Of a stretch of DNA of 64,000 bases, positions 765 through 35,574 are shown one piece after another; within the stretch, counting starts at the first letter, position 1; each line of letters begins with the position of its first letter. The translations under genes and the position numbers were made by a program. This DNA is from Tubulanus polymorphus. Taxonomy: Eukaryota > Animalia > Nemertea. The stretch covers positions 1,719,355-1,783,354 of the forward strand of contig NC_134030.1 of the NCBI RefSeq assembly GCF_964204645.1. The letters run 5' to 3'. The notes beneath the pieces are model-generated. The model was not told the DNA's origin. It ran no database searches and worked only from the letters and a program-made list of their open reading frames with translations.

Positions 765-795
<31 letters not shown>

Positions 796-12069: not shown

Positions 12070-12685
12070 ATATTTTACATCTTTGATCAAAAATTGTAGT
12101 GTAAAAAAACTCAAAACTAAGGCCTCTATAAATGATCGATTGACTTTAAATGATTACTTTAGCACAGCTCTTGTAGACAATGATTAGGTGTCATAGTAGT
12201 TTAGCTCGAAAGTGCACATATAAGGTTAATTTTCATCCCTTATTTAGAGACCGAGGTATTGAGCGTCCATTTCAGCCCTTAAAACATCATCAACCTACCT
12301 CAAACTGACTGTTTTTAAATCCAGCAATAGTTACCTAACTATTGACTCATCATGGATTCGATTCAAAAACAATTTTTGATGATCATAGTGATTCGAAACG
12401 TTTGAATTTTTGAAAAACACGAATGCTAAACGACGGATCCGGACTTCGATAGCGGCCCAATGGCAGAGTTGATTTTCTTATTTGGAATTTGAAGATATAA
12501 ATCACTGAAATCAATTGGTTTTCTCAACCAAAATTAAAATTAAGAAGAATTTAGGATGGAGATGTTTGATTTTCATTTTGTCTAAAATGCCGACTTAAAA
12601 ATTAATTCAATTGAATCAAATTAATGAATTCATCATTTCACGATATTATAGATAATCAAAATGTGAATATGAAATCACCTTTTCA

Positions 12686-15296
12686 ATCGCTGTTTTTGGG
12701 TAAGATCGCAGTTTTTAGGTAAGATCGCAGTTTTTAGGTTAGATCGCTGTTTTGAGGTTAGATCACCGTTTTTGGTTAGATTGCTGTTTTGTGTTAGATC
12801 ACTTTTTGTGTTAGATCACAGTTTTTGTGTTAGATCGCTGTTTTTGGGTTAGATCGCTGTTTTGTGTTAGATCGCTGTTTTAGGTTAGATCGCAGTTTTT
12901 AGGTTACATTGCAGTATTTTGGTTAGACCGCAGTTTTTTGTTAGATCGCAGTTTTTAAGTTAGATCGCTGTTTTGGGTTAGATCGCAGTTTTTGTGTTAG
13001 ATCGCAGTTTTTGGGTTAGATCGCAGTTTTTGTGTTAGATCGCTGTTTTAGGTTAGATCGCAGTTTTTAAGTTAGATCGCTGTTTTGGGTTAGATCACAG
13101 TTTTTGTGTTAGATCGCTGTTTTAGGTTAGATCGCAGTTTTTAAGTTAGATCGCTGTTTTGGGTTAGATCACAGTTTTTGTGTTAGATCGCTGTTTTAGG
13201 TTAGATCGCAGTTTTTAAGTTAGATCGCAGTTTTTGTGTTAGATCGCAGTTTTTAGGTTAGATCGCTGTTTTGAGGTTAGATCACTGTTTTTGGTTAGAT
13301 TGCTGTTTTGTGTTAGATCACTTTTTGTGTTAGATGACAGTTTTTGTGTTAGATCGCTGTTTTTGGGTTAGATCGCTGTTTTGTGTTAGATCGCTGTTTT
13401 AGGTTAGATCGCAGTTTTTAGGTTACATTGCAGTATTTTGGTTAGACCGCAGTTTTTTGTTAGATCGCAGTTTTTAAGTTAGATCGCTGTTTTGGGTTAG
13501 ATCACAGTTTTTGTGTTAGATCGCTGTTTTAGGTTAGATCGCAGTTTTTAAGTTAGATCGCTGTTTTGGGTTAGATCACAGTTCTTGTGTTAGATCGCTG
13601 TTTTAGGTTAGATCGCAGTTTTTAAGTTAGATCGCAGTTTTTGTGTTAGATCGCTGTTTTAGGTTAGATCGCAGTTTTTAAGTTAGATCGCTGTTTTGGG
13701 TTAGATCACAGTTTTTGTGTTAGATCGCTGTTTTTAGGTTAGATCGCAGTTTTTAGGTTACATTGCAGTATTTGGGTTAGACCGCAGTTTTTTTGTTAGA
13801 TCGCAGTTTTTAAGTTAGATCACAGTTTTTGGGTTAGACCGCAGTTTTTTGTTAGATCGCAGTTTTTAAGTTAGATTGCTGTTTTGGGTTAGATCACAGC
13901 TTTTGTGTTAGATCACAGTTTTTGGGTTAGACCACAGTTTTTTTGTTAGATCGCAGTTTTTAAGTTAGATCGCTGTTTTGGGTTAGATCACAGTTTTTGT
14001 GTTAGATCGCTGTTTTTAGGTTAGATCGCAGTTTTTAGGTTACATTGCAGTATTTAGGTTAGACCGCAGTTTTTTTGTTAGATCGCAGTTTTTAAGTTAG
14101 ATCGCTGTTTTGGGTTAGATCACAGTTTTTGTGTTAGATCGCTGTTTTGGGTTAGATCACAGTTTTTGTGTTAGATAGCTTTTTTAGGTTAGATTGCTGT
14201 TTTTGGGTTAGATCGCTGTTTTAGGTTAGATCACAGTTTTTGGGTTAGATCGCTGTTTTGGGTTAGATCACAGTTTTTGTGTTAGATCGCTGTTTTTGTG
14301 TTAGATCGCTGTTTTGGGTTAGATCACAGTTTTTGGGTTAGATCGCTGTTTTTGGGTTTGATCGCTGTTTTGGGTTAGATCACAGTTTTTGGGTTAGATC
14401 GCTGTTTTTGGGTTAGATCGCTGTTTTGGGTTAGATCACAGTTTTTGGGTTAGATCGCTGTTTTTGGGTTAGATCGCTGTTTTTGGGTTAAATTGCTGTT
14501 TTTGTGTTGGATCATTGTTTTTTGTGTTAGATCATTGTTTTTGGGTTAGATCGATGTTTTTGTGTTAGATCGCATTTTTGTGTTAGATCACTGGTTTTTT
14601 GTTAGATTGCAGTTTTTAGGTTAGATCGCTGTTTTTGAGTTAGATCGCTGTTTTGTGTTAGATCGCCGTTTTGTGTTAGATCGCCGTTTTTAGGTTAGAT
14701 TGCTGTTTTTAGGTTAGATCGCTGTTTTTAGGTTAGATCGCTGTTTTTAGGTTATATCGCAGTTTTTGTGTTAGATCACTGTTATTGTGTTAGATAGCAG
14801 TTTTTAGGTTAGATCGCTGTTTTTGAGTTAAATCGCCTTTTTGGGTTAGATCACAGTTTTTGTGTTAGATCACAGCTTTTAGGTTAGATTGCTGTTTTTA
14901 GGTTAGATCCCTTTTTTTTCTTAGATCGCAGTATTTAGGTTAGATCGCTTTTTTTGGATTAGATCGCTGTTTTTGGGTTAGATCGCAGTTATTGTGTTAG
15001 ATCGCAGTTTTTTGTTAGATCGCTGTTTTTGGGTTAGACCGCAGTGTTTAGGTTAGATTGCAGTTTTTGGGTTAGAACACTGTTTTTCTGTTAGATCGCA
15101 TTTTTTGTTAGATCGCTGTTTTAGGTTGGATCGCTGTTTTAGGTTAGATCGCAGTTTTTTGTTAGGTCGCTGTTTTTGGGTTAGAAAGCTGTTTTTGTGT
15201 TAGATTGGTGTTTTTAGGTTAGATCGCTATTTTTGTGTAAGATCGCTGTTTTTGGGTTAGATCGCTGTTTTTGGGTTAGATCGCTGTCTTTGTGTT
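12686..15296. repeat. About 19-20-bp satellite (GTTAGATCGCWGTTTTTRK), roughly 130 copies, with higher-order blocks
   Basis: Continuous G/T-skewed tandem array. Confidence 0.97.
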
Positions 15297-15345
15297 TTTG
15301 TCAATCATCATATCAAGATTTGCAATCCCAGTTGCCTTCAAGTTT

Positions 15346-15740
15346 CATATAGAGAATTAGTGGATGTGGTGTCCCTGGACCCCTACATGCACCATATAGA
15401 GAATTAGTGGATGTGGTGTCCCTGGACCCCTACATGCAACATATAGAGAATTAGTGGATGTGGTGTCCCTGGACCCCTACATGCACCATATAGAGAATTA
15501 GTGGATGTGGTGTCCCTGGACCCCTACATGCACCATATAGAGAATTAGTGGATGTGGTGTCCCTGGACCCCTACATGCACCATATAGAGAATTAGTGGAT
15601 GTGGTGTCCCTGGACCCCTACATGCACCATATAGAGAATTAGTGGATGTGGTGTCCCTGGACCCCTACATGCACCATATAGAGAATTAGTGGATGTGGTG
15701 TCCCTGGACCCCTACATGCACCATATAGAGAATTAGTTCA
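15346..15740. repeat. 47-bp minisatellite (about 8 copies), inverted relative to 5159-5678
   Basis: catatagagaattagtggatgtggtgtccctggacccctacatgcac. Confidence 0.95.
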
Positions 15741-15808
15741 CTGAACCAGAATAAGACTGACTGATATATTTTCAAATGATTTAATATTTTTACTTGTTTT
15801 TCTAGAAG

Positions 15809-15871
15809 ATGCCAAAAGCTGTAAAAAAAACCCGGGGCGTGGGGCCCTCAACATCTAGCCCCTATAATAAA
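15809..15871 (+). CDS. Gene A coding exon 1 (MPKAVKKTRGVGPSTSSPYNK)
   Basis: tttttctag|AAG ATG ... AAT AAA|gtaagt. Confidence 0.65.
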
Positions 15872-18800
15872 GTAAGTACAAATTTACTGCTTCCATGCTT
15901 ATTTATTCATCCCATACTTAGTATTTTGTACCCCTGGGTCCAGTTTCACAAAAAGGATAAACGCCTTAATCGATTTAAGATAAACTGAATTAATGAAGAA
16001 ATTAAATCGATTTAAGAGTTAAACCTGTTTGTGAAACTAGGCCCTGAATTGCATCTAGAATGAAAAAAAAGAAAAAAAAATATTGAAAATAACGTTGGTG
16101 AAATATTTCTGGATCTTTCTGGATTTCTGCTCAATGCATCGTTTAGTAAAATATCGATATTCTCTAAAAGTAAAGATATAAGAATAAAAATATTGTATTG
16201 AATCGTGATTAGTTACTGTATGCGCTGCTAGTTGTTGCCCAACCCATAGCCTCATTTCTCTCCATTCTAAATTTGCATTGTTTAACATTGTCTGGTCGCT
16301 ATGGAAACTATTTATTTAAGTTTCTTTGTGGTATCCATGGCAACAGTAACGTTTAGGTAGTGGCACCAATTATGGGTCCCAACGTTCCCATGGCGATACA
16401 TGAGAACATTTATCCTATTTTTGACCTACATGACGTAAGATGGTAGTGAGTCGATGACGTCATTTTCGTCTCACCACTAATGAAAAAAAAAAGAAATGAA
16501 AAAAAAGGAAAAAATCGTTAGAATTACGTTTATGAAATTTTTCTGGATCGGCTAAATGTATTGTTCCATTAAATATCGACATTCTCTAAAATTATAGGCA
16601 TCAATATCAAAATGATGATACAGCAGACTCCGCTTAACTCTGTTCTATTTGGACCATTAATTAACCGAATACCAACTTTTTAAAATTTTAGGATTTTTAC
16701 GTTAAGGATCAGAAAATGTGTATGCAATTTCAACCGGGTACCGAGTAGGGTGGCCGAGTCTACTGTAGTCTGCTGCCCCCTCGAATCCATTACCTTATTA
16801 TCTCTCAATTTGCATTGTTTGACCTCGTCTGGTTGCTATGGAAACTATTTAGTTATATCAGGATCAACGGTTTTTTCGAGGTAACCAGTGGCAACATTTA
16901 ACAGGCGTGTCCATCCTAGAGATAAACTGTCTGATTTCACAGCCACATCCGTCCTAGAGATAAACTGTTAGATAAACTCTGATTTCGCGTCTGTCCTATT
17001 TCTTGTCATTGTATGAATATGTTTTCTCTTTTATAGGGTACAGCGCAGCAACAACAACAACAACAACAGCAACAGCAACAACAACAACAAAAATTTAATA
17101 TTTCTATGTCCGGAATAGACGTAAGTTATCGTAAACGCCTGTTTGAAGTCATCATTCTTGAGCTTGAAACCGAAATTTATATTATAGAATATTAAACCCT
17201 GCTTCTGCTACTGACAGGTAATGTCCGTCATACATTACTGCATCGTCAAATCTATACCAGGGTGCACCCAGGCAGATCGTTCGCATCATCACATGCAAAG
17301 GGCTGATTATTTTGGAACCCAGTTTTTATCAGCTGGAACATTCTGCACATTCGACCATATTGATTGATAGCCCGTTATAGACGAGTGGAGAAAAACTGAA
17401 AAACCAGTTCGGACAAACTTCGATTGATTTCACTCACATTTACAGAAATTTGGTCCGACCCCAAAACCATTTACTTACACTATACAAATCAGATCAGGTT
17501 TTTAACATTGTCTTTGATTGTATTTTCAGTTTTTGCCGACAACGCCGCCGAGCGGTTCTTCTACGCCGGTAAGTGATAACTATTTTCTAATAAATCACGC
17601 TTATTTCAATTTGTAATTTGAAAATAGAGGGTAGTAGCTGTTATGCATAAATTATGCTAATTAGGAATAAATTCAAATTCGATTAAGTCTCATCATCGTA
17701 GAAGTCATATATTAATGATGCTAAAGTTGTCATTTAAATTAAGTGTTATATTTACTACTTCATTTGCTTCATGACCCAAAAACCTCTACTATATAACTAC
17801 TGGTTTTGTTCTAATCTTGGAGAATTTGCTGCAAAATTTACTTATCATTTGTTAAACAGTTTTTATTGAAAACCTGAATCAGTGATACATGCATTCATGA
17901 ATATCCATCTAATATTTTGTTTTATTTTATCTTTACAGGATTTATCACCGATACAGCACGTGGACGTAAGAGATTAAACATTGATCTTGAATTTTAAGTT
18001 CAAACTAATTTATTTTTTATCTCACTCGGGACTATAGTTATTGCGTTCACTTTGCGTCCAGTTGTCTCGGCTAGTTTTTGATTTATCGTGTTGATAATTG
18101 GTTTATATACTCAAACTCAAAATATCGGCGCAATTGGAATTAAGATGGCGCACTTGTATGTCCATTTTTTTCCCCGGCAAAATTAGCACTTTAGCAGATT
18201 TTAAGGATCAATTCTGTTGTTATATTACATTGAAATCAGAGTTTAATATATATCGGTATAGAGCAGGTTTTTGCTCTAGTTATAAATAAAGTTATAAATA
18301 ATCTCATGACATGTTCTGTATATGTGTAGTGAGTTTCAATGTCTTTGGTTCCTTTTAAACCAGGGGGAGTTAAATTTGAAAATGTCAGATCGTCGAGCAT
18401 TTCAGACCGCTTCCAAAGTGGGTCCCTGCACCCCTAGTTATACCGTTAATATTTTAATAATATATTGATATACCATACATTGATATCGGTCTTGTAATTG
18501 GATCAACAACCATGAGATCAAAACACAGCAAATATGAACCTGCTGTGAATCAATAGATTTGTGATAAATGTAATGAAATTGTTATTTTTCATATTGACTT
18601 TTTGAGTTAAGGGTCTGTTGTATAAGAGTCTTTGGTCTCGCGTGTCAATGTATGATATCAATCTGTATTTCCTCGTTCCAATGTTTAAAAGGTGTTCGTC
18701 ACCTTATATTAATAAACTACTTTTACCGTTAGATGGCGCCATAAGTGTGATATTTGATTTATGGGATACCCGCAAAACCAGCTATTCCACCAGATGGCGC

Positions 18801-21800
18801 AACGAGTAGTAGGTCGTTCGTTGTCAAAATTAGTTCATTTTCGATGAACTTTGAACTGGTTTGAAGAAGAAATACTTTCATTCTTCTAATCTGATATCGA
18901 TTTAGTTTTCATTAATAATTGATTCATTTAAGAGAACAATTCATTCAGATTTAATTGAAATGTACAAGAAAATCGAACGCAGACGACCAACTATTTACTA
19001 GCGACACCTGGTGGATCCTCGCCTGCCATAAGTGGAATCCTCGATTGCCACAGTAAGACTGCGGGTATCCCATTGTTTGGCGTGTGAATTAAAGTAAAGT
19101 TAGAAAACGGATGTTAAACTTTGTTGTGAAACGAAAGCGTTTTGGAGATTTTTAAACCAATCAAATCAATATTTTGATATTACGCTTGAAACCCTTCCCA
19201 CTCATATTCTACTTACTAAGTATATATTCTTATTTCCGTGGAAATCATGGTGAGTGGCGCCATCTATACAGTGGAGTTAGCTTTATAAATCGAGCATGAT
19301 TCGACAAGTGGCTCCATCTATTCCCTAATACTGAAGCGAGGTAACCAGCAGCGCCCTCATATACAGGAAATGAACGCCTATCAAGTTTAACAATGCACGG
19401 TGTATTGACCACAGCGACCGGTGATAATTATATCAATGTTGATTAGCTATTGCCATAGACAGGTCCGTAGCGTTTGACTGGACCAGAACGGGGCCCCCTA
19501 ACCAAAACAAATTTTGAAAACGTGCCCAGATAAATTGCCTCTGGGAGATTGATTTAACGAGGTTTTGATTAAATGAACAAATTTTAATATTTGTAAGTTT
19601 AGCATTTCTGTTTTTAATTTTTCTTTGCGAGGAACTGAATTTTCGAACCCCCCCGAACCGCCTCAAGCTACGTTCCTGATATAGTGCTAGCTATACCTGA
19701 ATACTTTTCTCTTATTGAAATTTTCTAAAAAACCAGCACCTTGAACTAATGAACGTCATAATGAAAATGTTTAAAAATTCAACCGTTAATGAATTTGACT
19801 AATGTATTTTTTTTATTTTCATTTCTAGCGTCAGTTTGCCTCACAGCGAAGGTCGCCGTCGCTTAATGTAAGTATCAGTGACGCCCTCAATCTCACATGC
19901 CTCACTTCCCTCCTAATGTAACCATTTTTATGAAATTCCTCAAGAAAATATATACTAGTAATCTTAGAATACACGTTTTTGTACCCAGACCCCTTCATTC
20001 TACTGAACTACCGTGTAATAAGTGCCTGTTGTGTTCATTTTCTGTTGCATTGATTTATATATTATTTCTATTTACAGTTGTCAAACAACAGCAGCAGCAG
20101 CAGCGCACCCCTCCCGCCGGAGACGCCTCCCGACTTGCAAGCAAGAAGTAAGTTCAGTCTTCAAATACAATTTCAATGCATTCAATTTTGTGTATGGCGT
20201 TAAAACGGTTAAAGTTGTGACTAGTTTTCATAACTCCGTGACGTCATATTTCCATCGAGTACCGGACCCTTTCCAATGTTTTTTGCCAATTTGGATTGAA
20301 TGATCGCCAGCGGTTTTTCTATACGACCCGGCTCTGCTGTATTGCATTTAGCCATCCTTTTTCTTGGCGTTTTTTATAAGGTGTTTGATTTTGTCTCTAA
20401 GGGATTTAGGAATTTAAGAGACACTTGTACTCTCTATACAGTGAGTTTGTTCTGTTTTTGTTCCCTCGTGAATTTTATTTTTGTTTGGTATAATTTGATT
20501 TATCATAATCAAATCAAATCAGTGCATATTTCTTGAATTGCGTGTAAGTTATAATGTTATCAAATATCTTATATTTAAACCGAATATTTAATTGTTGTAT
20601 TTTTAATGCCGCTCCCTGCTAAAGTCGAGCGTCGTCATCGTGAGGGATGCGGTCATCTGTTCGGGCCCTGATTACGTTCTGTGTTCATCCTGTTGGGCTA
20701 CATCGGGCGTTATATGAGTTAATCCTTCCTCGACTTGCGGATTGTGGTCGGAAGATCTATGGGTTCGGGCCGATAAGTCCCGGAAACAGAAAGTACAGTT
20801 TCTGCCTATGTGCCCATTGATGTCTCTATTTCAGAACATCACAGCGGTCGCCGGCTGTACAAGCACGGTCGGCTTCCCAACTCCATTCTCTGAGGAGGAT
20901 CGCTGGTTCTCTAGTAACGGTCAGTCACCAGTCAATCAACAGTTCAGCTGGTTCAGTTTCCCAGATATCGGCGCGCGACAGTCGGGATACCTGCACAGGA
21001 ACTCAGGTCCGGTCCGGGCTACTCCGAGCACCAGTCCGGTCCAGGCCTCACTGGGTAATGAACATCTGGTCCGGTCCGGGCGGCTTCGAGCACCGGTCCG
21101 GTCCAGGCATCACCAGATACTGAACATCCTGTCCAGTCAGCTCCGTGCACCGGTCCGGTCCAGGCATCACCGGGTACTGAACATCTGGTCCGGTAGCTTC
21201 GAGAACTGGTCCGGTCCAGGCATCACCGGATACTGAACATCCTGTCCGGTCAGCTCCGTGCACCGGTCCGGTCCAGGCATCACCAGTTACTGGTCCGGTC
21301 CGGGCAGCTTTGAGCACCAGTCCATTCCAGGCATCACTGAGTACTGAACATCCAGTCTGGTCCGGTCCAGGCAACACCGGGTACTGATCATCCAGTCCGG
21401 TCCGGTCCAGGCATCACTGGGTACTGAACATCTGCTCCGGTAGCTTCGAGAACTGGTCCGGTCCAGGCATCACCGGGTACTGAACATCTGGTCCGGTAGC
21501 TTCGAGAACTGGTCCGGTCCAGGCATCACCGGGTACTGAACATCTGGTCCGGTAGCTTCGAGAACTGGTCCGGTCCAGGCATCACCGGGTACTGAACATC
21601 TGGTCAGGTAGCTTCGAGAACTGGTCCGGTCCAGGTATCACCGGGTACTGAACATCTGGTCCGGTAGCTTCGAGAACTGGTCCGGTCCAGGCATCACCGG
21701 GTACTGAACATCTGGTCCGGTAGCTTCGAGAACTGGTCCGGTCCAGGCATCACTGAGTACTGAACATCCAGTCTGGTCCGGTCCAGGCATCACCGGGTAC

Positions 21801-24800
21801 TGATCATCCAGTCCGGTCCGGTCCAGGCATCACTGGGACTGAACATCCAGTCTGGTCCGGTCCAGGCATCACCGGGTACTGAACATCCAGTCTGGTCCGG
21901 TCCAGGCATCACCAGTTACTGAACATCCAGTCCGGTCCGGTCCAGGCATCACTGGGTACTGAACATCCAGTCCGGTCCGGTCCAGGCATCACCGGGTTCT
22001 GATCATCCAGTCCGGTCCGGTCCAGGCATCACCGGGTACTGAACATCCAGTCCGGTCCGGTCCAGGCATCACTGGGTACTGAACATCCAGTCCGGTCCGG
22101 TCCAGGCATCACTGGGTACTGAACATCCAGTCTGGTCCGGTCCAGGCATCACCGGGTACTGAACATCCAGTCTGGTCCGGTCCAGGCATCACTGGGTACT
22201 GAACATCCGGTCCGGTCCGGTCCAGGCATCACCGGGTACTGAACATCCAGTCTGGTCCGGTCCAGGCATCACTGGGTACTGAACATCCAGTCTGGTCCGG
22301 TCCAGGCATCACCGGGTACTGAACATCCAGTCTGGTCCGGTCCAGGCATCACTGGGTACTGAACATCCGGTCCGGTCCGGTCCGGTCCAGGCATCACCGG
22401 GTACTGAACATCCAGTCCGGTCCAGTCCAGTCATCACCGGGTACTGAACAGGGTTCGTCGCGGTGCTTGAAAAGCTTGAAATGGCTTGAATTTGAAAAAT
22501 ACTACTCAAGCGCTTGAAAACAGCTTGAAAATAGATCGAAAGCTTGAAATAATTATTTTTGACTTGAAATAAAAAGTTATGGCTTGAAATGCTTGATTAT
22601 CACAAATTTTCTTCTTCACGAATTTTTTTCGATGAAATCGCAGACAGAATATGTTCTTGAGTTGTTTCTACGCGTGCGTCATGTTTTAGGCATCAATAAA
22701 GAAATTAATTGAATTGTATTGAATCGCTATGAGACTCTTGTGGTGAAACTCTACGGTGTCTGGAGACATGAACATACGGGGAAATTTCAGTCATGCATGT
22801 TATCGAGCATTGATGTAAAATGGCATTGAAATCCCACACCAGGAGTGAGAGCCATGTTGAAGGCACCGCGACCTAGTCAAAGTCATTGAACATTACAAAT
22901 TTCGTATTAGGCCATACAAAAATCAAGGTCTGTTTGCCGTCATCCGACCGACCCGACTTCAAAGGTACCCAGTGGAAACTTTTTTCTTGGATTCATTGAA
23001 ATAAATTGTATTTTTGATACAAATGGCCGACCCACTGCCGATGTATGAGCTATGTATGTTTGAAGTTAAGTGTGCATCATGTGAAAACATGCCTCGACTA
23101 TTTACTTGAAGTTTTCCAGGAAACTGGCAGTGTTCCAATAAGCTGCCATTCATTCTAAAGCTGGTAATGTTATAGCGTGCATATATTCAATCTACTGTTT
23201 CATTTTGAACGCAGATTTCGGATGTTGTTTCCGCTAAAAGTGGTGATGATAAATTTGTTGTTTTTTTTTGCCCCAAAATTTTGCAAAAAAAATGATGCTA
23301 CCTTCCTACTGACTTATCCCAAAAATTTTAGTAGGTGTAACGGCAAAACAGACAATTAATTTGGGATGGCCAAATATCCAAATCTTGATTGATATGAATA
23401 TTTAAGCTAGGAAATGCTGAAAATCATTGTGATGAACAGGTTTCATCTCTAACAGAATCGTATCAACTCGGAGGTTCCACTGGAATCAAAATTTTACCTC
23501 TTTTTTAACATTTTTATACGAACCTGTTCAAAATAGGCAAATTGGCTGCGACTAACGAAAATTGCTTCCAACGTGCCTTAAAAAATAGCTTGAAAATGGT
23601 ATAAATCTAGCTTGAAATGGCTTGAATTTCACCTGAGCTTGAGACAATGAACCCTGCTGAACATCTGGTCCGGTCAGCTTCCAGCACCGGTCCGGTCCAG
23701 GCATCACTGGGTACTGAACATCTGCTCCGGTCAGCTTTGAGCACCGGTCCGGTCCAGGCATCACTGAGTACTGAACATCCAGTCCGGTCCGGTCAGCTTC
23801 CAGCACCGGTCCGGTCCAGGCATCACCGGTTACTGGTCCGGTCCGGGCAGCTTTGAGCACCGGTCCGGTCCAGGCATCACTGAGTACTGAACATCCAGTC
23901 CAGTCCGGTCAGCTCCGAGCACCGGTCCAGGCATCACCAGGTACTGAACATCTGGTCTGGTCCGGGCGGCCTGGCATCAATGTTTCGAATTTAAAACATA
24001 GTTATCATGGTTCTAGGTTTGGTAGAGGGCGCTCTTCTACCAGATGCAGGAGCGAGGTCACCTTCACGGAGATCGAGATCGAGGGATTATGATTGATTCT
24101 GTAGGAACCATCATCATTCATCAGTTCAGGTCGAGGGACCGTTTAGGAAGTTCACGTCTTTCACGTCGAGGGACCGTTTAGGAAGTTCACGTCTTTCACG
24201 TCGAGGGACCGTTAAGGAAGTCGTCACAATAATCAGGATTTCCGCGATTTCGAAAGTAAGATTTTAAACTTGTTATTGTCATTGTAAGCTACCGCAGTTA
24301 CAGGTAAGCCTATTCTTGATTGCCCGAGACAGGCGTGCAGATATTGTTCCCGACTTAAGTTTTTGGTTGATTTTCTTGTGACTTGTTTGTTTTAGGGGTG
24401 AGATGGATGAGCCTTATTGTTTTTTGACATATATAGGTCATCCAAGATGGCCGCCACAGCCATTTCAATGTGTAAAATAGCCATTTTGAAGCTTGTGACA
24501 ACTCTACAATCTACAGTTTCAGACCAATTTACCAATTACTTATTCTGTGGTTTCATAATGGTAAGAGGATGAGCCTTATTGTTTTTGACATATATAGGTC
24601 ATCCAAGATGGCCGCCACAGCCATTTCAATGTGTGAAATAGCCATTTTGAAGCTTGTTACCGCTCTACGGACTTAAGTTTTAAGCTTAAGACTTAAGATG
24701 GCCACCACAGTTATATCAATGTCTTAAATCTTATCCGATTTGGAGCTTGTTACTGCTCTAAGATGTAGAGGTTTAGAGGTTTATAATTTCATTCATACTT

Positions 24801-27800
24801 GTACTGTGGTTTATTTATGGTGGTCAGAGGATGAGACCTATTACAATTTGCATTCTCTACTTGACTCACTGGTCAAGGGTTAATATCTAGTTTGATAAAT
24901 GTGGAGCATGTCGGTGAATCATCCCCCCCCCCTCCCCCGGACTCTGATCTCAATGTCTGATGTCAATCGTCAGCAGTTTCAATGGAATAGGCTCGATTAG
25001 GTGTGGAACAAGTGGAATCCTCGATTGCCACAGTCAAACCTAGAGTATTAAGAGCTCAATTAGGTTCTTCTTTGCGTCTCTTCTCCGGTTGGAGTGCTCC
25101 AGTTTCCACCGAATGGAGGAAGATTAGAGATGTGCAGATTCAAGTCCACCATGCGGACTCCGGCTCCGGCAGCTCAAAACTCAAAATGAATGCTCGGGGC
25201 CAGTGAGAGGTTGTCTATAACGAGCAGCCACCTACTGATCCGGCGTTCCCGGGTCGTATCACGGCGGCTACTGTCCTCAATTCTGAACACCTCCCGACAT
25301 GCGCCCGAAAGCAGGTCACGAGACAATAATCTCGTCAGCTCTCAAAGATCTGGCCAAAAAGAGAGCAATAGAACCAGTACGGGACGAAGCCACATCCGGC
25401 TGGTTTTCATGAATATTTATGCTCCTTAAGACCACAGGGCGTCGATGGACTGTCATTCCTCGAGTGGCACCTGGATATCCCGAGGCTTCCGATGACTAAA
25501 ACAGGGAGGTAATTCAAGGTCTCCGCCGAGGTTAATGGGCGGCTTCATTGGACCTGAAAGATGTCAGGTTCCTATTCACCCGAAATCTCATCAATTTTAC
25601 AGAATGAAGTGGAAACTCCGCCAGTTCCAGTTCAGGTCTCTTCCAGTCGGCCTCAGTACAGCCCACGCCCTGGGTATTTACCAGCTTGGGTCAAGTCCAG
25701 AAGGTACACTACACTCCAGGGCTGGGTTTCATAGATATGGAAGAAAAATAATTCCAGGGATCATTTTGAAATTTGTCAGTTAAAACCATGGTTTCTCATT
25801 GTTAGTCTGGTGGTTGTTACCCAGATTGAGGATTTATCCCTTTGGATAACTTTGATACTCAGTCTATGAAACCGGGTCCTGGAGTATTTGTCTGTTGGTT
25901 TACCTCGACGACTGGTTACTAGTACCAAACTCGACTATAGAATGTCAGGAGGCGGTGACCGCTGTCGACCGCTGTCGTAGACTTAGTTCACCAGTTCCGC
26001 GTAAACTAAGTAAAATCTCACTTGATGCCGTCCCAACAGTTCACATCTCCGGATCAGCACGGTCTTTCCGTCCATGGCTCGAGTAGCCAAACTTCAAGAA
26101 GCGTAGTTACCACAAACGAGAGGACAGCTAGTTATCGGTGACGCCTGTGGCTAAATGCAATACCGCAGTGCCAGGGGTCGTATCTCTGGCTATCTACACA
26201 TTCAGAGAATATTAACTAAAACCATAGGAAAGGGTCAAGCACTACTCCGAAAAAAAACTAATTTTATTTCCAAAAAATTATGATATTATATGGATTGCAG
26301 CTGTGTGGAAGAAGTTTTCAAAATTATTTAGGAGCTTATTATAATTTGAATGCATGAATTGAGAGCAATTTGAAATGTGTTGATATCCGAAAGTGTTTCC
26401 ATTGACTTCACTCATTCACCTGATGAAGCTTCTATACATTAGTACCCAAAGCTTGTGTGTCAAATAAACTAGTTACACGTCCTATAAAGTACTACTTGTC
26501 TCGTTATATATTCTAAACCCCAGTTAACAATTCCAGTAAGTCAGGTTTAGGGAATAGATATTTAAACCTTGAGATGATACCGATGTGATACAATTCCAGT
26601 AAGTCAGGTTTAGGGAATAGATATTTAAACCTTGAGATGAAACCGATGTGATACAATTCCAGTAAGTCAGGTTTAGGGAATAGATATTTAAACCTTGAGA
26701 TGATACCGATTTAATACAATTCCAGTAAGTCAGGTTTAGGGAATAAATATTTAAACCTTGAGATGAAACCGATGTGATACAATTCCAGTAAGTCAGGTTT
26801 AGGGAATAGATATTTAAACCTTCAGATGAAACCGATGTGATACAATTCCAGTAAGTCAGGTTTAGGGAATAGATATTTAAACCTTGAGATGATACCGATG
26901 TGATACAATTCCAGTAAGTCAGGTTTAGGGAATAGATATTTAAACCTTGAGATGATACCGATGTAATACAATTCCAGTAAGTCAGGTTTAGGGAATAGAT
27001 ATTTAAACCTTGAGATGATACCGATTTAATACAATTCCAGTAAGTCAGGTTTAGGGAATAAATATTTAAACCTTGAGATGAAACCGATGTCAGTGATACA
27101 ATTCCAGTAAGTCAGGTTTAGGGAATAGATATTTAAACCTTGAGATGATACCGATGTTATACATTCCCAGTAAGTCAGGTTTAGGGAATAGATATTTAAA
27201 CCTTGAGATGATACCGATGTTATACAATTCCAGTAAGTCAGGTTTAGGGAATAGATATTTAAACCTTCAGATGAAACCGATGTGATACAATTCCAGAAAG
27301 TCAAGTTTAGGGAATAGATATTTAAACCTTGAGATGAAACCGATGTGATACAATTCCAGTAAGTCAGGTTTAGGGAATAGATATTTAAACCTTGAGATGA
27401 AACCGATGTGATACAATTCCAGTAAGTCAGGTTTAGGGAATAGATATTTAAACCTTGAGATGATACCGATGTTATACAATTCCAGTAAGTCAGGTTTAGG
27501 GAATAGATATTTAAACCTTGAGATGAAACCGATGTGATACAATTCCAGTAAGTCAGGTTTAGGGAATAGATATTTAAACCTTGAGATTAAACCGATGTAA
27601 TACAATTCCAGTAAGTCAGGTTTAGGGAATAGATATTTAAACCTTGAGATGAAACCGATGTGATACAATTCCAGTAAGTCAGGTTTAGGGAATAGATATT
27701 TAAACCTTGAGATGATACCGATGTTATACAATTCCAGTAAGTCAGGTTTAGGGAATAGATATTTAAACCTTGAGATGAAACAGATGTGATACAATTCCAG

Positions 27801-30800
27801 TAAGTCAGGTTTAGGGAATAGATATTTAAACCTTCAGATGATACCGATGTGATACAATTCCAGTAAGTCAGGTTTAGGGAATAGATATTTAAACCTTGAG
27901 ATGATACCGATGTTATACAATTCCAGTAAGTCAGGTTTAGGGAATAGATATTTAAACCTTTAGATGATACCGATGTGATACAATTCCAGTAAGTCAGGTT
28001 TAGGGAATAGATATTTAAACCTTGAGATGAAACCGATGTAATACAATTCCAGTAAGTCAAGTTTAGGGAATAGATATTTAAACCTTCAGATGAAACCGAT
28101 GTGATACAATTCCAGTAAGTCAGGTTTAGGGAATAGATATTTAAACCTTGAGATGAAACCGATGTGATACAATTCCAGTAAGTCAGGTTTAGGGAATAGA
28201 TATTTAAACCTTGAGATGAAACCGATGTGATACAATTCCAGTAAGTCAGGTTTAGGGAATAGATATTTAAACCTTGAGATGAAACCGATGTGATACAATT
28301 CCAGTAAGTCAGGTTTAGGGAATAGATATTTAAACCTTGAGATGAAACCGATGTGATACAATTCCAGTAAGTCAGGTTTAGGGAATAGATATTTAAACCT
28401 TCAGATGAAACCGATGTGATACAATTCCAGTAAGTCAGGTTTAGGGAATAGATATTTAAACCTTCAGATGATACCGATGTGATACAATTCCAGTAAGTCA
28501 GGTTTAGGGAATAGATATTTAAACCTTCAGATGAAACCGATGTAATACAATTCCAGTAAGTCAGGTTTGATATTTAAACCTTCAGATGATACCGATGAAT
28601 TTAGCAATTTTGAATGAATTAAACCAATATGAGATTTCGATCCTAAGAATATTGGAAGCTTGTGTTTAACGTTACTAAATATTAATATTATATAAAGCTA
28701 GAAGGACACGAGGGTATCCATTTTTTTGCCCGATCGCGACGATTAAATTCGCCGGTGAATTTATACGCCCGATACGAGCGGGTACCGATCTATCTATAAA
28801 TCGGCCGTCACGGTGATTTCGTCGCCCGCCGACATTAAACATGTTCGATATTTACGCCGGTGTTCGGGTCACTTGTTAATTCGCTCGGCTTGTCGGCAAG
28901 CTTAAAAAGATTTAGAAAAAACTAGAAATTCTCATTCCTGAATGAACTGGATTCATCTGGGTTCAGTTTCATGAGACACAGTTCAAACTGCTCTTGAATT
29001 TGAGTTTGTAATTAATGTATGTGATTATAATGAATTGTATTTTTGTTTTACAGCTTTGGCATTTCGGTTAAGTCGTGCGTTCCGGCGGGAGGAGTTCGTC
29101 AGAATATTTCTACCGGAGTGTAAGTAGTTTAACTATTTTCATACAATATCATTTAGTGTGACGTGTGTTACTGATTCAGGCACGGATCCAGGAATGTTTC
29201 CAAGACGGGGTTCATAAAAATGCTGACTAAAATCTCTAATAATAGCCGGGGCCTATACGGCATATTTTTTGGCCAAACATAAGGCCTTTTTTTAATAGCA
29301 TGGTTTGGTTGCTCCCAAAATTTGAAGAAACATAAAATAAAAAAGAATTAGAAAAAAAATTTTTTATTCCTGTCTGTGAAACAAATTCAGTGAAAAACCG
29401 AGCAAAAAAGATTTTTCACCTCGGCCGAATGAGAATCCTGGATTGAACGATGAAACAATTGAAAAACGCGAGGTTCTTTTTTGATCGCAGTGTGCAGAAT
29501 TCAAACTTTCCAAGAATCATTTGTTCGGACATATGTATATTGCCCTATTGACAGTTCCCTCTTCCTTCTAAAAGTGATTTTATCTCACTGAGGGAATTTT
29601 TAAAAAATTTTCTCTGAAATGATATGGTAGCGTTTTTTTTTTTGCTTTAAAAATTTTTTGGTAGCCGATCAGCGGGGTCACGACCCCTGAAACCCTCCCT
29701 GGATCCGCGCCTATGATATCTCCTCAAAATCTAATAAAAACTTTCAATGAATTAATGCTGTAATGACGATATGTAGCCATCTGTCTATTTGAATGCATTT
29801 GCAAAAAGACAAAAAGAAATAGTAGCAGAATTTTGGCTAAAAGTTTAGAATACCCAAATTCAACATTGCTTGCAGCAGACGGAATTTCCGCCATTTTGGT
29901 TAACAGGGGATTCCCCCCTCCGGTACTTCCCATGATCAATAGTGTCTATGACGCGTTGCGTACGGAATGCCATGGAATTCCCTCACATGATTTATGATAA
30001 TAATGTTTACTTGCATTCTGATTGGTTAAAATCGCGTGTAGTTTGAACGTAGGCAATGTTTACATTTGTAACGTCACCGGCGAGTCGCTGACATTAACGT
30101 AGTCATTGAGTTAACATTATCTTGCACTGAATGGTGATATCAATCGCATTCATTTTATAAATATTTTGAATATGAATTTGTTTTTATATATCAACTGCGA
30201 GTAACAGTGTTACGCTATTGAGTCTTAAGAGACAGCCTTTATGGACCTTATTGGTTGTTATAACTCACAAGCTGACTGAGTTAGCATTCTGGATCCGTCA
30301 GATTAGTTACTTCTAGAAAATATGTTAGTCACATTTTCTGACTATATTCTGGAAAACAGTGGAAGCTTGTATCCACCCTAGATTAGAACCAATCAGAATA
30401 CACTATTTTACAGAAAATGTATTTATGACAATTGCGTAAGGTTTTAGTAAAATAGTGTTTTTTCTCGAGTAGTTGCCGAAGAAGCATAAAAATTTGATTC
30501 AATTTCATTCAGATTTAAACAAACAAATCGAATTTCATTTCATTCAGCGCAAACTTCAAATCTAATTAAAATTTTGTTCAGTATGAATAAGTTGCAAATC
30601 ATTGAGAGGAAAAAATAATTAATTGTGTTACTTAAAAAAATCACAATTGTACTGTGTTTATCAAAACAGGAGACCACAGGACCTTTGGTCCTCTAGTATT
30701 CTTTTCCTAGTTATTCCAAAAACACTAAAACAGTCCAATCAGCGATCGCTGCCAGACCAACACGATTACATTGAAATCAAACTTAAGTAACATCAGGCGC

Positions 30801-32643
30801 CCCCTGTTGGAATAATATTCATAGCCGTAGCATCGAAACCATTCGACTTGTTGTTTAATGTATTTCTCTCTATTTTTATTTTACAGTGATGAACATTTTA
30901 GAAGAATGTCCGTTTGGGGACTTGGTGGGGGAATTCAAAAGAAACTTGGTTCCCGATAGGATACCACCACCGGTTAATCCTATGTCGCCCGCTGCTGCCC
31001 CTCCCCCACGTCCATTAAATTCGCCTCAGCAGCGGCCTGTCAGACAGCCGCCCCCGGCCGCCACTCGTTCGTCAGACAGAGTCCGGGGACGGCTGTTTGA
31101 AGGAGATCTGACGGAGGTAAGAATCTTTATTTGTTTTCATATTTTATTCAGGATATCAGTTGAAGTTCAGCAAATAAATTACCAGACCTGTAAACAGAAG
31201 AGTAGTCATGAATTTCCATTTGCGGGTAAAACCCCATAGTCGAAAACCTTCGGTTATTGATCTATATCTGCTTAAGACCAATGGTTGTACACACGAGTGC
31301 GAAAACTTATCGCTCAAACTTTGATTGTATCCATGGTAACGCGTACAGTATACTATGCGTGACTTACCGTTTCCTATCACTGGAATACAATACTGTTTTT
31401 GACCATGAGCGCCATCTGCGGCGGTCATAACGGACTGACTGGTGATTGGCTGAAATGCTCGTCTACCGTGGTGACGATTATTCGGTGTTACACGTGCAGC
31501 AGACACGTCTCTGAATATCTAACATTTGATTGTTGTAACTCATCGGGAAAAATATGTTTATGAGTCGATTTTTTGTCGAAATTTTGTTCGGCAGAAAATT
31601 GGCTGCGTACGTCAAGAAGGCGGCTGATATTTGTATCGTGTGACCCCTCGTCCCGGTAATATGCCGACCCACGTACACCTGAGACCAGTTGCATAGTCAG
31701 AGCTTAGAATTAAGACCGTTTTAAGACCAACTTAGTTCTATAGCCAATCTAATAACTTAAGACCAGTCTTTAGATTTAAGACCACTTTTGGACTTAAGTC
31801 TTGACCATGGAATCGGCCCCAGATGCTTATTCCGCTGTATTGGATGCTGACGTGCTCGTGTCTTCCAGCAATGTTGTTATTCACCAAAAATATCATGTTT
31901 TGTTCGAATAACACGATTCATCTGAGTCTGGGTTTAACGGATGACACGTTCAAACAGAACTACGAAATCAATATCAGAAGTCCTTTTATATTGAAACGGT
32001 CCCAGAAGTCCCTGTTATAATGGGTACTTTTTCAAAAAAAGTAACGAGAACTCCGATGGCTTTCCGTATCGGTAAAAACTAACTATTTCTATGAGCGTCA
32101 CTCGTAGATTTACCGAAACGCCACCTTGTGACACGATATCCTAACTACGTATAGGTGTTTTATTTGCTGAATCGCTGGTTTCTCATTCTCATTTTTTATA
32201 CTTGTGTTTAATTTTATACTAAACAAATTTTTCACTTTTTCTCTTTACAGACACGACCACCGCCAAAAAAAACTAGAACAAAAAGGAAAAGAAAAGTTGC
32301 GGTCGTCGTGGCTCCGCAGGGAGGAGGAGCAAGATTGGTCCCGGCGGATGGTGCGGCTGACGAAGGTAATCGGGAGGAAGGGGAGGGGATAAATAGGAAG
32401 CGGCCGAGGAGGGATGGTGGTGGGGCTGGGGATGGTGCGGGTCCTGCTCCTCCTGCTCCTCCATCCGTATCTCGGGCGGTCACTCGTTCACTCGCCAAAA
32501 AGCTGGCGAGTGAACGAGTGGCCCGAGAGGTAGAGGTGGTGGCCCGACATACGGATGGAATGTGGGAGGAGCGGCTTCGTTCGGGGACAATTCCGGATTT
32601 GTTAACTGATTTAAAAAATATTCTTTCAGTGAAGGGATATTAG
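15809..32643 (+). CDS. Orphan gene with nine coding exons ('gene A'), 336-aa low-complexity, likely nuclear protein
   Basis: Exons 15809-15871, 17037-17120, 17530-17568, 17939-17965, 19829-19867, 20078-20147, 29054-29119, 30887-31116, 32251-32643. All flanked by yAG/GTAAG, intron phases 0,0,0,0,0,1,1,0, total 1011 nt open to TAG. Protein: MPKAVKKTRGVGPSTSSPYNK GTA(Q15)KFNISMSGID FLPTTPPSGSSTP DLSPIQHVD RQFASQRRSPSLN LSNNSSSSSAPLPPETPPDLQART LAFRLSRAFRREEFVRIFLPEL MNILEECPFGDLVGEFKRNLVPDR...VRGRLFEGDLTE TRPPPKKTRTKRKRK...RKRPRR...GMWEERLRSGTIPDLLTDLKNILSVKGY*. Paralogous exons at 1-8.4 kb share most of the same boundaries. Confidence 0.7.
15937..16043. mobile_element. PIF/Harbinger-type MITE
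   Basis: TIRs ggtccagtttcacaaa / tttgtgaaactaggcc, CTG target duplication. Confidence 0.7.
17037..17120 (+). CDS. Gene A exon 2 (polyQ15)
   Basis: ttttatag|GGT ... GAC|gtaagt, 84 nt. Confidence 0.7.
17530..17568 (+). CDS. Gene A exon 3 (FLPTTPPSGSSTP)
   Basis: ttttcag|TTT ... CCG|gtaagt, 39 nt. Confidence 0.7.
17939..17965 (+). CDS. Gene A micro-exon 4 (DLSPIQHVD)
   Basis: tttacag|GAT ... GAC|gtaag, 27 nt; paralog near 4670-4695 (-). Confidence 0.6.
18763..19071. mobile_element. MITE
   Basis: TIRs gggatacccgca / tgcgggtatccc. Confidence 0.55.
19829..19867 (+). CDS. Gene A exon 5 (RQFASQRRSPSLN)
   Basis: tttctag|CGT ... AAT|gtaagt; paralog at 1083-1121 (-). Confidence 0.65.
20078..20147 (+). 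CDS. Gene A exon 6 (LSNNSSSSSAPLPPETPPDLQAR)
   Basis: tttacag|TTG ... AGA A|gtaagt, phase 0 in, phase 1 out. Confidence 0.65.
21005..23978. repeat. 40-bp (with 57-bp variant) GC-rich minisatellite, split by an insertion
   Basis: Unit ccagtccggtccggtccaggcatcaccgggtactgaacat at 21005-22448 and 23657-23978. Confidence 0.95.
22449..23656. mobile_element. Non-autonomous hAT-like DNA transposon with 5-bp TSD and a nested MITE (22910-23371)
   Basis: TIRs cagggttc / gaaccctg, TSD ctgaa, subterminal gcttgaaa repeats; inner imperfect TIR ggccat...gtctgtttgccgt. Confidence 0.75.
25719..25878. mobile_element. Harbinger-type MITE inserted into the DIRS RT
   Basis: Imperfect TIR cag|ggctgggtttcataga ... 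tctatgaaaccgggtc|ctg. Confidence 0.55.
26520..28597. repeat. 63-bp satellite, about 33 copies
   Basis: Unit aattccagtaagtcaggtttagggaatagatatttaaaccttgagatgawaccgatgtgatac. Confidence 0.97.
29054..29119 (+). CDS. Gene A exon 7 (symmetric phase-1 exon)
   Basis: ttttacag|CT ... GAG T|gtaagt, 66 nt, open, GC-rich island in AT-rich DNA; no paralog seen in the window. Confidence 0.55.
29177..29713. mobile_element. Non-autonomous TIR element (hAT-like ends)
   Basis: caggcacggatccagg / cctggatccgcgccta; a similar end occurs near 57846-57861. Confidence 0.6.
30887..31116 (+). CDS. Gene A exon 8
   Basis: ttttacag|TG ATG AAC ... ACG GAG|gtaag; paralog at 4063-4295 (-). Confidence 0.7.
31682..31819. 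mobile_element. Harbinger-type MITE (same family as 61790-61928, opposite orientation)
   Basis: Reverse-complement similarity to 61790-61928; flanked by CTG/CAG. Confidence 0.7.
32251..32643 (+). CDS. Gene A terminal exon 9 (NLS-like basic clusters, RLRSG motif)
   Basis: ctttacag|ACA CGA ... TAT TAG; paralogs at 7279-7627 and about 7957-8330 (-). Confidence 0.7.
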   Translation, partial: TRPPPKKTRTKRKRKVAVVVAPQGGGARLVPADGAADEGNREEGEGINRKRPRRDGGGAGDGAGPAPPAPPSVSRAVTRSLAKKLASERVAREVEVVARHTDGMWEERLRSGTIPDLLTDLKNILSVKGY

Positions 32644-33284
32644 GTGCCTTGAACGCATGAGTCGTTCATGCGCGCCTAATATGCCTTCACTGAAAAAAAT
32701 CAACTATAACATGTACCACATATTTTTTGATTTAATTTTAGTCCAATTCCACAATTATTTCGGCTTACAATAGTGTCTTCAATTCTTTGAAGCCCAAAGC
32801 ACCTTTTTGACTCAACATCCAGTATGAAGGTGGCCGGGAATCGGGCCTGTTTTCTTCCATTTTTGTATCCCGCCCAGCATACTGGTTGTTGACTCGAAAA
32901 GGTGCTCGCTCTGGGAGCTTATCAAAGGCAGGTGATGGGAAAGGTGCCATCACACACTCTCCTTTGATAAGTTTCCTAGAGTGTCACGGGCTTTAACGGG
33001 TTGAATTCACTATAATACCAATTTTCCAAAATCAATTTAATTTCTTTCAGGCCATTCTTTTTCCATGTTTTTCTGGTACATGTTATGGTTGATTTCCATT
33101 TTCGAAAATCCGGAATTGAAGCCGTTCGAAGTCGGGGGGATGGTGGTGGGGTTGGGTTAGTTTAGGGTTCCTCTCTGATTACCTTCTTTAGCTCATCATC
33201 CGTGCAGGTGGCGCTTGCTCTTCTAGCCGGTGTTCCCTGGGGTAAACATTTTAAATTTAAAAAATCAAAAATTAAAAAAAAATA

Positions 33285-33872: not shown

Positions 33873-34111
33873 ACTAGAAATTAAAGTTCTAAGTTTGTTG
33901 TTAGATTCTATTGAAAGAACGTTGTAAAGTTCTTAATTTGTCTTAAAAAACGTTAGAAAAAAAGAACTTCTTAAAGTTCTCAATCTGCCGTAAAATGCAA
34001 TTGAAAAGATTATAACTCACATGAAAATTAAAAAGATAAAATAATTGATAAATAATCATTAATAAAAATTGAACTTTGGTCTCGCAATGTTTCCCCGTTA
34101 TGCATTTTTTA

Positions 34112-34605
34112 CTCGTCGTCAAACATCGGCAGCTCATCGTCGATACTCGCAGCTCGATACACACCAGCAGCTTGTCGTCGATACACACCAGCAGCTCGAT
34201 ACACACCAGCAGCTCGATTCACACCAGCAGTTCGTCGTTGATACACACCAGCAGTTCGTCGTCGATACACACCAGCAGTTCGTCGTCGATACACACCAGC
34301 AGTTCGTCATCTATACACACCAGCAGTTTGTCGTCGATACACACCAGCAGTTCGTCGTCGATACACACCAGCAGTTGGATACACACCAGCAGCTCGATAC
34401 TCAGCAGCAGTTTGATACACACCAGCAGCTCGTCGATACACACCAGCAGTTCGTCGTCGATACACACCAGAAGCTCGATACACACCAGCAGCTCGTCGTC
34501 GATACACACCAGCAGCTCGTCGATACACACCAGCAGCTCGATACTCACCAGCAGCTCGATACACACCAGCAGCTCGTCGTCGATACACACCAGCAGCTTG
34601 ATACC
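34112..34605. repeat. 15/18/21-bp minisatellite (gatacacaccagcagctc/ttcgtcgtc)
   Basis: Gives DTHQQ(L/FVV) repeats; open in several frames. Confidence 0.9.
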
Positions 34606-35574
34606 AAAACAGCTTTTAGCTGGTGAAAACCTACCCCCCATCGGGGTTAAACATGATCAAGCTATTATTCTAGGAATATAACTGTTGCAAGGGAAGTTAA
34701 GATTCATTAACCTAAACTTGATACAAAGAGATTATTGCTAATTATGAATTTCAAGGGTTTAAAAACTGATTTAAAAATCTTGAAAGACGCTCGGTCTCAC
34801 TAGAGATTTTCATCTTAAAGATTTATTGTCCTCTTACTATTGTTTAGGTGATCTATAATTTGGTAAATGCTGCTGTTGGAAAGATGCCAGAAGAAAGTTG
34901 ATTCGTGCACATCTTCACTTCACGTATTTATTGCACAAGGCGCCGACTTGCACCTGCACTACACCATTCACACTTCACCACTTCTGCATCTTTATCAATT
35001 AATTCTGGCATCTATTTGAAAATTACTTTAAACATCAGATCTCAAACTGAAACATTGAGGTATTGAATTTCAAACTGAAATATCGAGCTATCGAATCTCG
35101 ATCTCAAATGTTTACTGGAAGCCATATTTGATGTTGTATTATTCATCATAGATTGTTTAGTGTTTTCTGGCATATGCGGGCCATTTAAGATGGTCAGATA
35201 AATTCCCCGGTGGAAAATATATCTCGTGGAAGAGTCATGGAAATGAAAAATATCTTATGTAGATGTGAAGTTAGGAACCTTGCAACAGTTATTCCACCTG
35301 AGGATAATTTGATATAAGATGAATCAGTTATTGGATCATTTAACTGAAGCCAAATATAGTGAAAAATCTTAGTAAAAATTTGTCTCAAACTACAATTGAA
35401 AGGACTTATCACAGTTCTAATTCGACTCTAGGTGCGTTCAGAAGAACTTCTTAACAGTGAAAAAACTTGACTAAAAATCAGGAATCGACCCTGTTCATTG
35501 ATAAGATTTGATCTTTATTTGAAGATTAAGAATCAAACTCGCTAATTCACAATTTTTGGTAGTAAATACTGTTG

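Follow-up and report, generated by a model that had tools for sequence, protein, structure and literature searches.

We describe a predicted nine-exon gene on the forward strand of a stretch of DNA from the ribbon worm Tubulanus polymorphus (contig NC_134030.1 of assembly GCF_964204645.1, positions 1,719,355 to 1,783,354); the whole stretch of 64,000 nucleotides is referred to as the window and its own numbering is used throughout. The coding exons lie at 15809–32643, are 27–393 nt in length and sum to 1011 nt, which corresponds to 336 codons and a single terminal stop, with intron phases along the gene of 0, 0, 0, 0, 0, 1, 1 and 0 (Table 1). All eight donors read GTAAG, and every acceptor combines a pyrimidine tract with YAG. 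A sequence-only reading had proposed this chain, with canonical splice sites and an uninterrupted 336-residue frame, and it was borne out, coordinates included. The same reading described the exons as short GC-rich islands; this holds for their lengths, but exon 2 has a GC content of only 38%. Head to head with the gene lies a minus-strand mosaic of exon-centred fragments, from which most of the comparative evidence is drawn.

The acceptor at 15806 lies just 3 nt before the exon 1 ATG, which implies a further 5′ exon. The likely candidate is a non-coding first exon, exon 0, which starts at a TCAGT (11995–11999) that we take to be initiator-like. Over 50 nt it shares 94% identity with 6007–5958 (minus strand) in the mosaic, where the similar sequence precedes a donor, a 47-bp array and an exon 1 copy; the 47-bp array of the predicted first intron also lies upstream of exon 1 in two mosaic fragments. 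An N-terminal extension from exon 0 was rejected, as its ATG at 12015 is out of frame.

A frame-blind splice-signal rule was applied to both strands of 15738–32700. It found nine acceptor–donor pairs on the plus strand, eight of which are exons 1–8, the ninth (24396–24560) being closed in all frames; the minus strand of this interval gave none. The exon 9 acceptor was among the 11 acceptors found by the rule. We note that this comparison is partly circular, because the thresholds were chosen after the exons had been seen. With shuffled exons the chain was open in 982 of 200,000 trials for exons 1–7 and in none of 200,000 for all nine. The join of exons 6 and 7 across 8.9 kb is predicted from phase and order only.

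The coding frame was also examined by comparing the gene with 18 fragments at 1–8.6 kb, in which eight of the nine exons are testable. Near-duplicates (at about 180, 2149 and 564), partial exon 1 pieces (about 3042, 6460 and 6562) and a short exon 9 piece at 8557 were left out. The ratio of nonsynonymous to synonymous divergence (dN/dS) is 0.30 in the proposed frame, compared with 1.86 and 1.45 in the other frames, and the differences are distributed 51/44/114 over the three codon positions, the third thus accounting for 114 of 209. The proportion of nonsynonymous differences (pN) is below that of synonymous differences (pS) in all eight exons having fragments (sign test p 0.004), with the reservation that pooled p-values are overstated because all fragments were compared with the same reference gene. 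For exon 1, pN/pS is 0.26 across six fragments, and exon 3 differs from its fragment by five synonymous and two nonsynonymous changes. We regard the coding family as almost certainly real.

Table 1. Positions of the gene, its fragments and associated features in the window
Feature	Position	Strand	Basis or remark
Exon 0, candidate non-coding first exon	about 11997–12063	+	Inferred; donor GTAAGT at 12064
19-bp and 47-bp satellite arrays in predicted first intron	12686–15737	.	Repeat scan
Exon 1	15806–15871	+	Splice model; acceptor 15806, ATG 15809, coding part from 15809
Exon 2, poly-Gln	17037–17120	+	Splice model; two fragments fuse it to exon 1 and one fuses it to exon 3, with no intron between
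Exon 3	17530–17568	+	Splice model, fragment comparison
Exon 4, 27 nt	17939–17965	+	Splice model, fragment comparison
Exon 5	19829–19867	+	Splice model, fragment comparison
Exon 6	20078–20147	+	Splice model, fragment comparison
Predicted intron 6, 8.9 kb	20148–29053	+	CCGGT-rich arrays, nested element, stretch resembling reverse transcriptase (RT), 63-bp satellite
Nested 1.2-kb element, CAGGGTTC terminal inverted repeats	about 22449–23657		Inverted-repeat evidence
Degenerate RT-like stretch	about 25290–25930	sense strand	Presumed label, no Pfam hit
63-bp satellite in intron 6	26527–28568		Repeat scan
Exon 7	29054–29119	+	Splice model; no fragment copy in window
Exon 8	30887–31116	+	Splice model, fragment comparison
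Exon 9, coding part	32251–32643	+	Fragments; two basic clusters, VTRS, RLRSG, stop codon
Nested fold-back over coding end and 3′ flank	32440–33150	+	Predicted fold only
Hairpins, about 70–125 nt	about 32446–32572, 32624–32695, 32798–32906, 32907–32983	+	Predicted
Long-range closing stems	32697/33095 and 32588/33118	+	Predicted
Whole mosaic of exon-centred fragments, scrambled	1–8560	-	Head to head with intact gene
Fragment A	4591–6048	-	Exon 0-like part, 47-bp array within an intron, fused exons 1-2-3, exon 4
Fragment B	3217–4022	-	47-bp array; exons 1 and 2 fused, intron 1 absent; intron 2

Divergence and intron loss in the fragment mosaic

The mosaic covers 942 of the 1011 exon bases but only 1473 of the 15824 intron bases, and contains no copy of exon 7. 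In the 18 aligned fragments, 14 of 18 indels are not a multiple of three. About ten mutually diverged copies of exon 1 are present, acceptor and donor flanks included (1736–3080 and 6100–6600, minus strand), and outnumber those of every other exon, and 1–583 is a duplicate of 2145–2727 at 97.8% identity. In fragment A introns 1 and 2 are absent, and exon 2 runs directly into exon 3 at the predicted boundary, followed by a retained intron 3; its exon 1 carries a 1-nt deletion and its exon 4 lacks a donor. Fragment B has a 1-nt insertion in exon 1 and keeps intron 2, 311 nt of which are identical to the gene. Exons 1 and 2 are fused in both fragments in the register set by the intron-bearing copies, and these intron-less fragments therefore support two of the eight coding-exon joins without recourse to RNA. 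The suggestion that paralogous copies keep most exon boundaries was partly right: what the window holds are scrambled, frameshifted minus-strand fragments rather than whole genes, and some of the introns have been lost.

Further evidence comes from contigs of three other runs, X1–X3, which belong to one study with at most two samples and were compared with the locus on either side of 20951–28599. We treat them as DNA because introns are covered throughout and no GT..AG exon join is among the joints listed. Their depths are not the same over the gene body and at the junctions specific to fragments, but depth does not measure copy number here and is given no weight. A fourth run, X4, presumed to be RNA, matched with two and one short pieces, all outside the exons, and carries no weight for or against expression. 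The shortened intron 3 junction of fragment A (17723/17892) was found in contigs of X1–X3 and a second mosaic-specific junction, 32603/32674, in those of X1 and X3; as both junctions recur independently of this assembly, we do not take the mosaic for a product of misassembly.

Over 15 aligned blocks, mismatches with the gene are found at 157 of 950 exon sites and at 94 of 1716 flanking sites. Beside the splice site, mismatches run at a rate of 0.215 over 10 exon bases, compared with 0.053 over the first 10 intron bases; the rate remains at 0.15–0.22 at every exon depth and at 0.05–0.06 across the first 20 intron bases. In fragment B the flank shows 2 differences in 68, the intron-less exon block 21–23% divergence and intron 2 none in 311, with 7 differences in 30 in the 3′ part of exon 2. 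Fragments A and B differ from each other at 1 of 151 positions in their shared upstream intron and at 14 of 58 in exon 1. CpG decay was rejected as the cause of the exon divergence, as the non-CpG rates are 0.116 (exon) and 0.044 (flank). The family had been called fast-evolving, but change in the protein is constrained, as indicated by the dN/dS value; the unusual feature is that the nucleotide divergence is restricted to the coding exons.

In our view these patterns slightly favour gene conversion from spliced templates. The templates would be spliced (complementary DNA, cDNA, or intron-less) copies of older relatives; such a template would pair with exons only and replace sequence up to the splice site, and an intron would be deleted where a conversion tract crosses a join. 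We prefer this reading because the sharp borders, the foreign sequence of the exons and the exact loss of introns would all follow from one step; a single event could leave fragment B with a near-identical flank, diverged intron-less exons and an identical intron 2. A cDNA and an old intron-less retrocopy would give the same picture in the DNA. Heritable conversion would need germ-line expression of donor copies, and the fragments look more like recipients than donors. In a single contig of run X1, 967 nt long, the 39-nt exon 5 accounts for 4 of the 11 differences, all four residue-changing (p 0.006, counted as three of ten events), which hints at ongoing exchange. The fuller statement we consider evenly balanced: that the gene belongs, as an intact copy, to a multicopy family restricted to its taxon and under purifying selection, that its exons are likely overwritten piecemeal by such gene conversion, and that its predicted product is a basic, mostly disordered nuclear protein likely to bind chromatin.

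Several observations count against conversion from spliced templates. The step at the exon border is clear in 11 of the 15 blocks, marginal in one, uninformative in one and reversed in two (exon 6 and exon 9), and intron identity is biased upward because the blocks were chosen by local alignment. Non-coding exon sequence is intron-like, both in the 50 nt matching exon 0 and in the 3′ flank (4 differences in 72 and 9 in 233). The lost introns, 1 and 2, are the 5′-most coding introns, and the ends of introns 3–8 are kept in other fragments; oligo-dT-primed cDNA is expected to give a 3′ bias of intron loss, and the losses here run in the opposite direction. Finally, exons as short as 27–39 nt that have diverged by about 20% recombine poorly.

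The alternative that survives best, unlikely though only moderately so, also takes the gene to be real, but supposes that DNA-level conversion homogenises the introns and satellite flanks of neighbouring copies while selection rejects tracts that enter coding exons; the intron losses would be separate, older events. It predicts that non-coding exon sequence should be as homogeneous as intron, as is seen, and is favoured by the shared 47-bp arrays, 10 kb apart in inverted orientation, and by the precedent of gibbon opsins, in which exon divergence, synonymous and nonsynonymous, exceeds intron divergence (PMC3213168). Fragment B alone, however, would need two tracts ending at splice sites in addition to intron loss, and the predicted erosion of exon edges is not seen, the rate being 0.215 in the outermost 10 nt. 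Current selection on the fragments is impossible because they are frameshifted, and the copies in the window are not intact paralogs with the same layout but frameshifted, scrambled and partly intron-less; intact paralogs may exist outside the window. Were this alternative true, the orphan family would display a pattern that is strong but has been described before.

Intactness of this copy and its sixth intron

A second alternative, which we think rather unlikely, accepts the family as real but holds that this copy has recently died, insertions in intron 6 cutting the transcript so that the 336-residue product is never made. In its favour, intron 6 contains a sense-strand RT-like remnant and 32 satellite units with GTAAG in each, exon 0 has an out-of-frame upstream ATG, and exons 8 and 9 occur in no annotated protein although the species' annotation is in the database. 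Against it, none of the nine exons or of the splice sites is disrupted, whereas breakage is seen in nearly all fragments, and the full-depth differences in X1–X3 (at least seven sites) comprise six amino-acid or silent changes, with no stop among those listed. We predict that the copy at 15809–32643 is probably expressed.

Two further features of the X1–X3 contigs concern exon 7. In one X1 contig position 29175 is joined to 30817, the arrangement expected where intron 7 is short, and this suggests a relative in which the flanks of exons 7 and 8 are adjacent. At 29043–29130, contigs of X1 and X2 lack 86 nt that comprise exon 7 and both its splice sites (the short sides being 20–24 nt), which suggests a relative lacking this exon.

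Within intron 6, a sense-strand element with CCGGT-rich arrays and RT-like motifs extends over 20718–26100 and is interrupted by the nested 1.2-kb element. Its LDLKD and YLDD are presumably RT-like motifs of DIRS-like type; they have no Pfam match. The exons had been described as threaded through satellites and transposons: the satellites are present, and the transposon labels depend on the terminal inverted repeat and on these presumed RT motifs.

The predicted product and predicted 3′ fold-back

The predicted protein has a net charge of +19, is 13% proline, is rich in proline, arginine and serine and contains poly-Gln. Basic clusters are found at residues 6, 212–221 and 256, and there is one internal hydrophobic stretch near residues 107–150 (exon 7 and the start of exon 8). 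A single-sequence AlphaFold model of exon 9 shows coil at residues 1–72 and then short helices, but at low confidence (predicted local distance difference test score 57.7, predicted template-modelling score 0.23) and too weakly for a fold search. Enrichment of serine/threonine–proline sites was rejected (8 seen compared with 5.9 expected). The product is likely to be a basic, mostly disordered nuclear protein and a probable chromatin binder.

Near its C-terminus are VTRS (residue 283) and RLRSG (residue 314), each of which occurs in 1–2% of shuffles; LRSG is kept in three of four translated fragment ends. Together with the basic clusters these motifs would tether the protein to nucleosomes, although we consider the prediction of acidic-patch binding doubtful. 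LANA of the herpesvirus KSHV and IE1 of human cytomegalovirus (HCMV) both have Met at position −3 of their motifs. Here that position of the arginine motifs is Glu or Ala, with Val in one fragment and never Met; moreover, the two motifs were noticed after the fact, and VTRS lies on the arm of a DNA palindrome, all of which tells against nucleosome tethering. That the product regulates from the nucleus by tethering to chromatin, probably in the germ line, is a long shot.

The homology queries were exons 8 and 9, and disordered sequence of this kind is hard to detect. For these two exons no family was found in Pfam (best E value 0.044, below the cut-off), and no match in a 5.8-billion protein set (longer class, E values up to 0.1), in the ESM Atlas or among PDB sequences (best E value 0.056, low complexity); viral and metagenome contigs held no relative of either. 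Exon 9, the sole query against 1.84 billion representatives, gave no match there. As a control we used 62560–62754 (minus strand), an exon of a protoporphyrinogen oxidase-like host gene; it is 98% identical to an annotated T. polymorphus protoporphyrinogen oxidase-like protein, so that the species' own annotation was searched. The open-access literature yielded no paper on the family, papers naming T. polymorphus together with a genome being judged by title and the start of the abstract. Judged by its sequence, the family is new to the databases searched with exons 8 and 9. The sequence-only reading had recognised no folded domain family. Its proposal of a lineage-specific multicopy coding family is supported by selection in one frame, the intron-less joins, the lack of homologs of exons 8 and 9 and the recovery of the control exon.

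The coding end and 3′ flank are predicted to form a nested fold-back. As RNA, 32440–33150 has a predicted folding energy of −328 kcal/mol, compared with −203 ± 4.9 kcal/mol for 20 shuffles (z score −25.7), and lies below all 90 tiled 711-nt windows, although its bounds were chosen after the fact. Single hairpins have z scores of −8.7, −10.2 and −5.6, the second spanning the stop codon, and weaker versions of the 3′ hairpins are present in the mosaic fragments. Rfam gave no match to the fold-back at the gathering score, and sub-threshold matches to generic hairpins only. The first AATAAA/ATTAAA after the stop is at 33271–33284. Other parts of the window are also rich in inverted repeats. Folding favours the sense over the antisense strand by 34 kcal/mol, and G–U exceeds A–C in the stems by only 5 to 1 (p 0.11); together these give no more than a hint of folding as RNA, and as single-stranded DNA the region folds equally strongly (z score −27.4).

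If transcribed, a 700-nt fold-back would make the message a substrate for Drosha/Dicer or ADAR, and the opposite-strand mosaic could add antisense RNA, leading to small-RNA control of the family. That the hairpins are processed is a tentative prediction from the modelled fold, to which we give somewhat less than even weight.

A third alternative, which we consider improbable, assigns the gene to a mobile element or an endogenous DNA virus as an accessory function, with the fold-back as a DNA terminal hairpin and the mosaic as replication debris. The strong folding of the region as single-stranded DNA fits this idea, as do stems that are more perfect in the gene than in the fragments, which template switching would produce; arginine-anchor motifs are, moreover, used by viral proteins (PMC9040877). 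Against this stand the lack of any relative of exons 8 and 9 in viral or metagenome contigs, the nine host-like introns predicted and the lack of a capsid, polymerase or transposase open reading frame (ORF) flanking the gene. Nor is there a matching 5′ palindrome: 1–15740 contains four inverted pairs, with only one AT-rich pair at 8.6–12 kb. The suggestion that the gene is cargo of a large mobile or viral element thus found no support, there being no relative of exons 8 and 9 in viral contigs and no hallmark gene among the ORFs of the window. Lastly, a chance exon chain or a mosaic produced by misassembly is hardly credible: short length, symmetry and openness in more than one frame do apply to five exons, and the splice rule was tuned after the exons were seen, but selection in one frame and the exact intron-less joins largely rule out a chance pick, and two mosaic junctions recur in other runs.

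The window contains several other elements. In each of five 265-bp tandem units at 37002–38359, about 160 nt separate an acceptor-like TTTTCAG from a donor-like AG/GTAATT site; these may be repeated exon–intron units, though in-frame stops are visible. A short palindromic element is present in two copies (31685–31820 and 61789–61924, 86% identity) with many loose ends in all DNA runs and is likely to be a high-copy miniature inverted-repeat transposable element. A tandem duplication of about 2.4–2.9 kb (51624–56918, 96% identity) is bounded by 76–78-bp arrays, whose GGTTCGAACCC motif we take to be tRNA B-box-like. Minisatellites open in several frames occur at 34066–34626 (24-bp units; no Pfam family) and 61054–61530 (51-bp units). 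Strong inverted-repeat structures at 50387–51250, 53070–53240 and 59029–59202 are likely to be small DNA elements.

Comparison with known systems

The gene represents a hidden, unannotated animal family in which the DNA by itself supports the frame and splice joins. Divergence limited to exons and combined with exact loss of introns, together with the giant predicted 3′ fold-back, sets it above an ordinary orphan, and each has known precedent separately. The neighbouring fragments are apparent snapshots of recent exon replacement, with identical flanks, foreign exons and introns exactly gone. Spliced-template intron loss is usually inferred over long time spans; if it recurs here between near-identical copies, direct tests become possible both of where tracts end and of whether RNA or a retrocopy served as template, and the 700-nt fold-back over the stop codon makes a clear small-RNA prediction. 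At its most ambitious the picture would be of a germ-line conflict family, in which a chromatin-tethering protein swaps whole exons via RNA templates and is policed by small RNAs from the fold-back and the antisense mosaic; we think this quite improbable. Such a system of exon exchange and silencing is not described in spiralians within the literature searched.

Retroprocessing, or cDNA-mediated gene conversion, is a general model of intron loss, and as here neighbouring introns are lost exactly and the flanks left intact. In contrast, the template here would be a diverged paralog, so that exon sequence changes; the lost introns are 5′, and single exons seem to be replaced without intron loss. 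Multicopy genes are diversified by non-allelic conversion in fission-yeast wtf, Borrelia vlsE and the chicken immunoglobulin pseudogenes, and the cassette systems have silent fragments upstream, in vlsE in inverted orientation. The fragments described here differ in looking like recipients, with no sign of a donor role or of programmed conversion.

The predicted product resembles KSHV LANA and HCMV IE1 in having short arginine-centred motifs near the C-terminus of a disordered basic protein (PMC9040877, PMC10606924). In the former, LANA R7-L8-R9 and IE1 R486 are given as arginine anchors (PMC9040877). There is no homology to either protein, and the present motifs lack Met at −3. In Drosophila, fold-backs yield small interfering RNAs against young selfish families, and Dox copies are flanked by satellite (PMC10317233, bioRxiv 10.1101/2021.08.05.454923). 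Dox and its hairpin RNAs (hpRNA) share with our locus young multicopy basic chromatin-type proteins, satellites, fold-back RNA and rearranged copies nearby, the protein type and the fold-back RNA being predictions for our locus. The gene described here has no HMG-box or other known domain and carries the fold-back inside the coding gene itself, and the likeness would be one of analogy, not membership.

The closest parallel to the divergence pattern itself may be drawn with the primate L/M opsins, in which, in gibbons, exons are more divergent than adjacent introns, synonymous sites included (PMC3213168). The present family differs in that exon 1 occurs in at least seven variants, in the very small size of its exons and in contrasts of up to 0 of 311 compared with 7 of 30, in combining exact intron loss with divergence inside the same tracts, and in that its copies are broken fragments.

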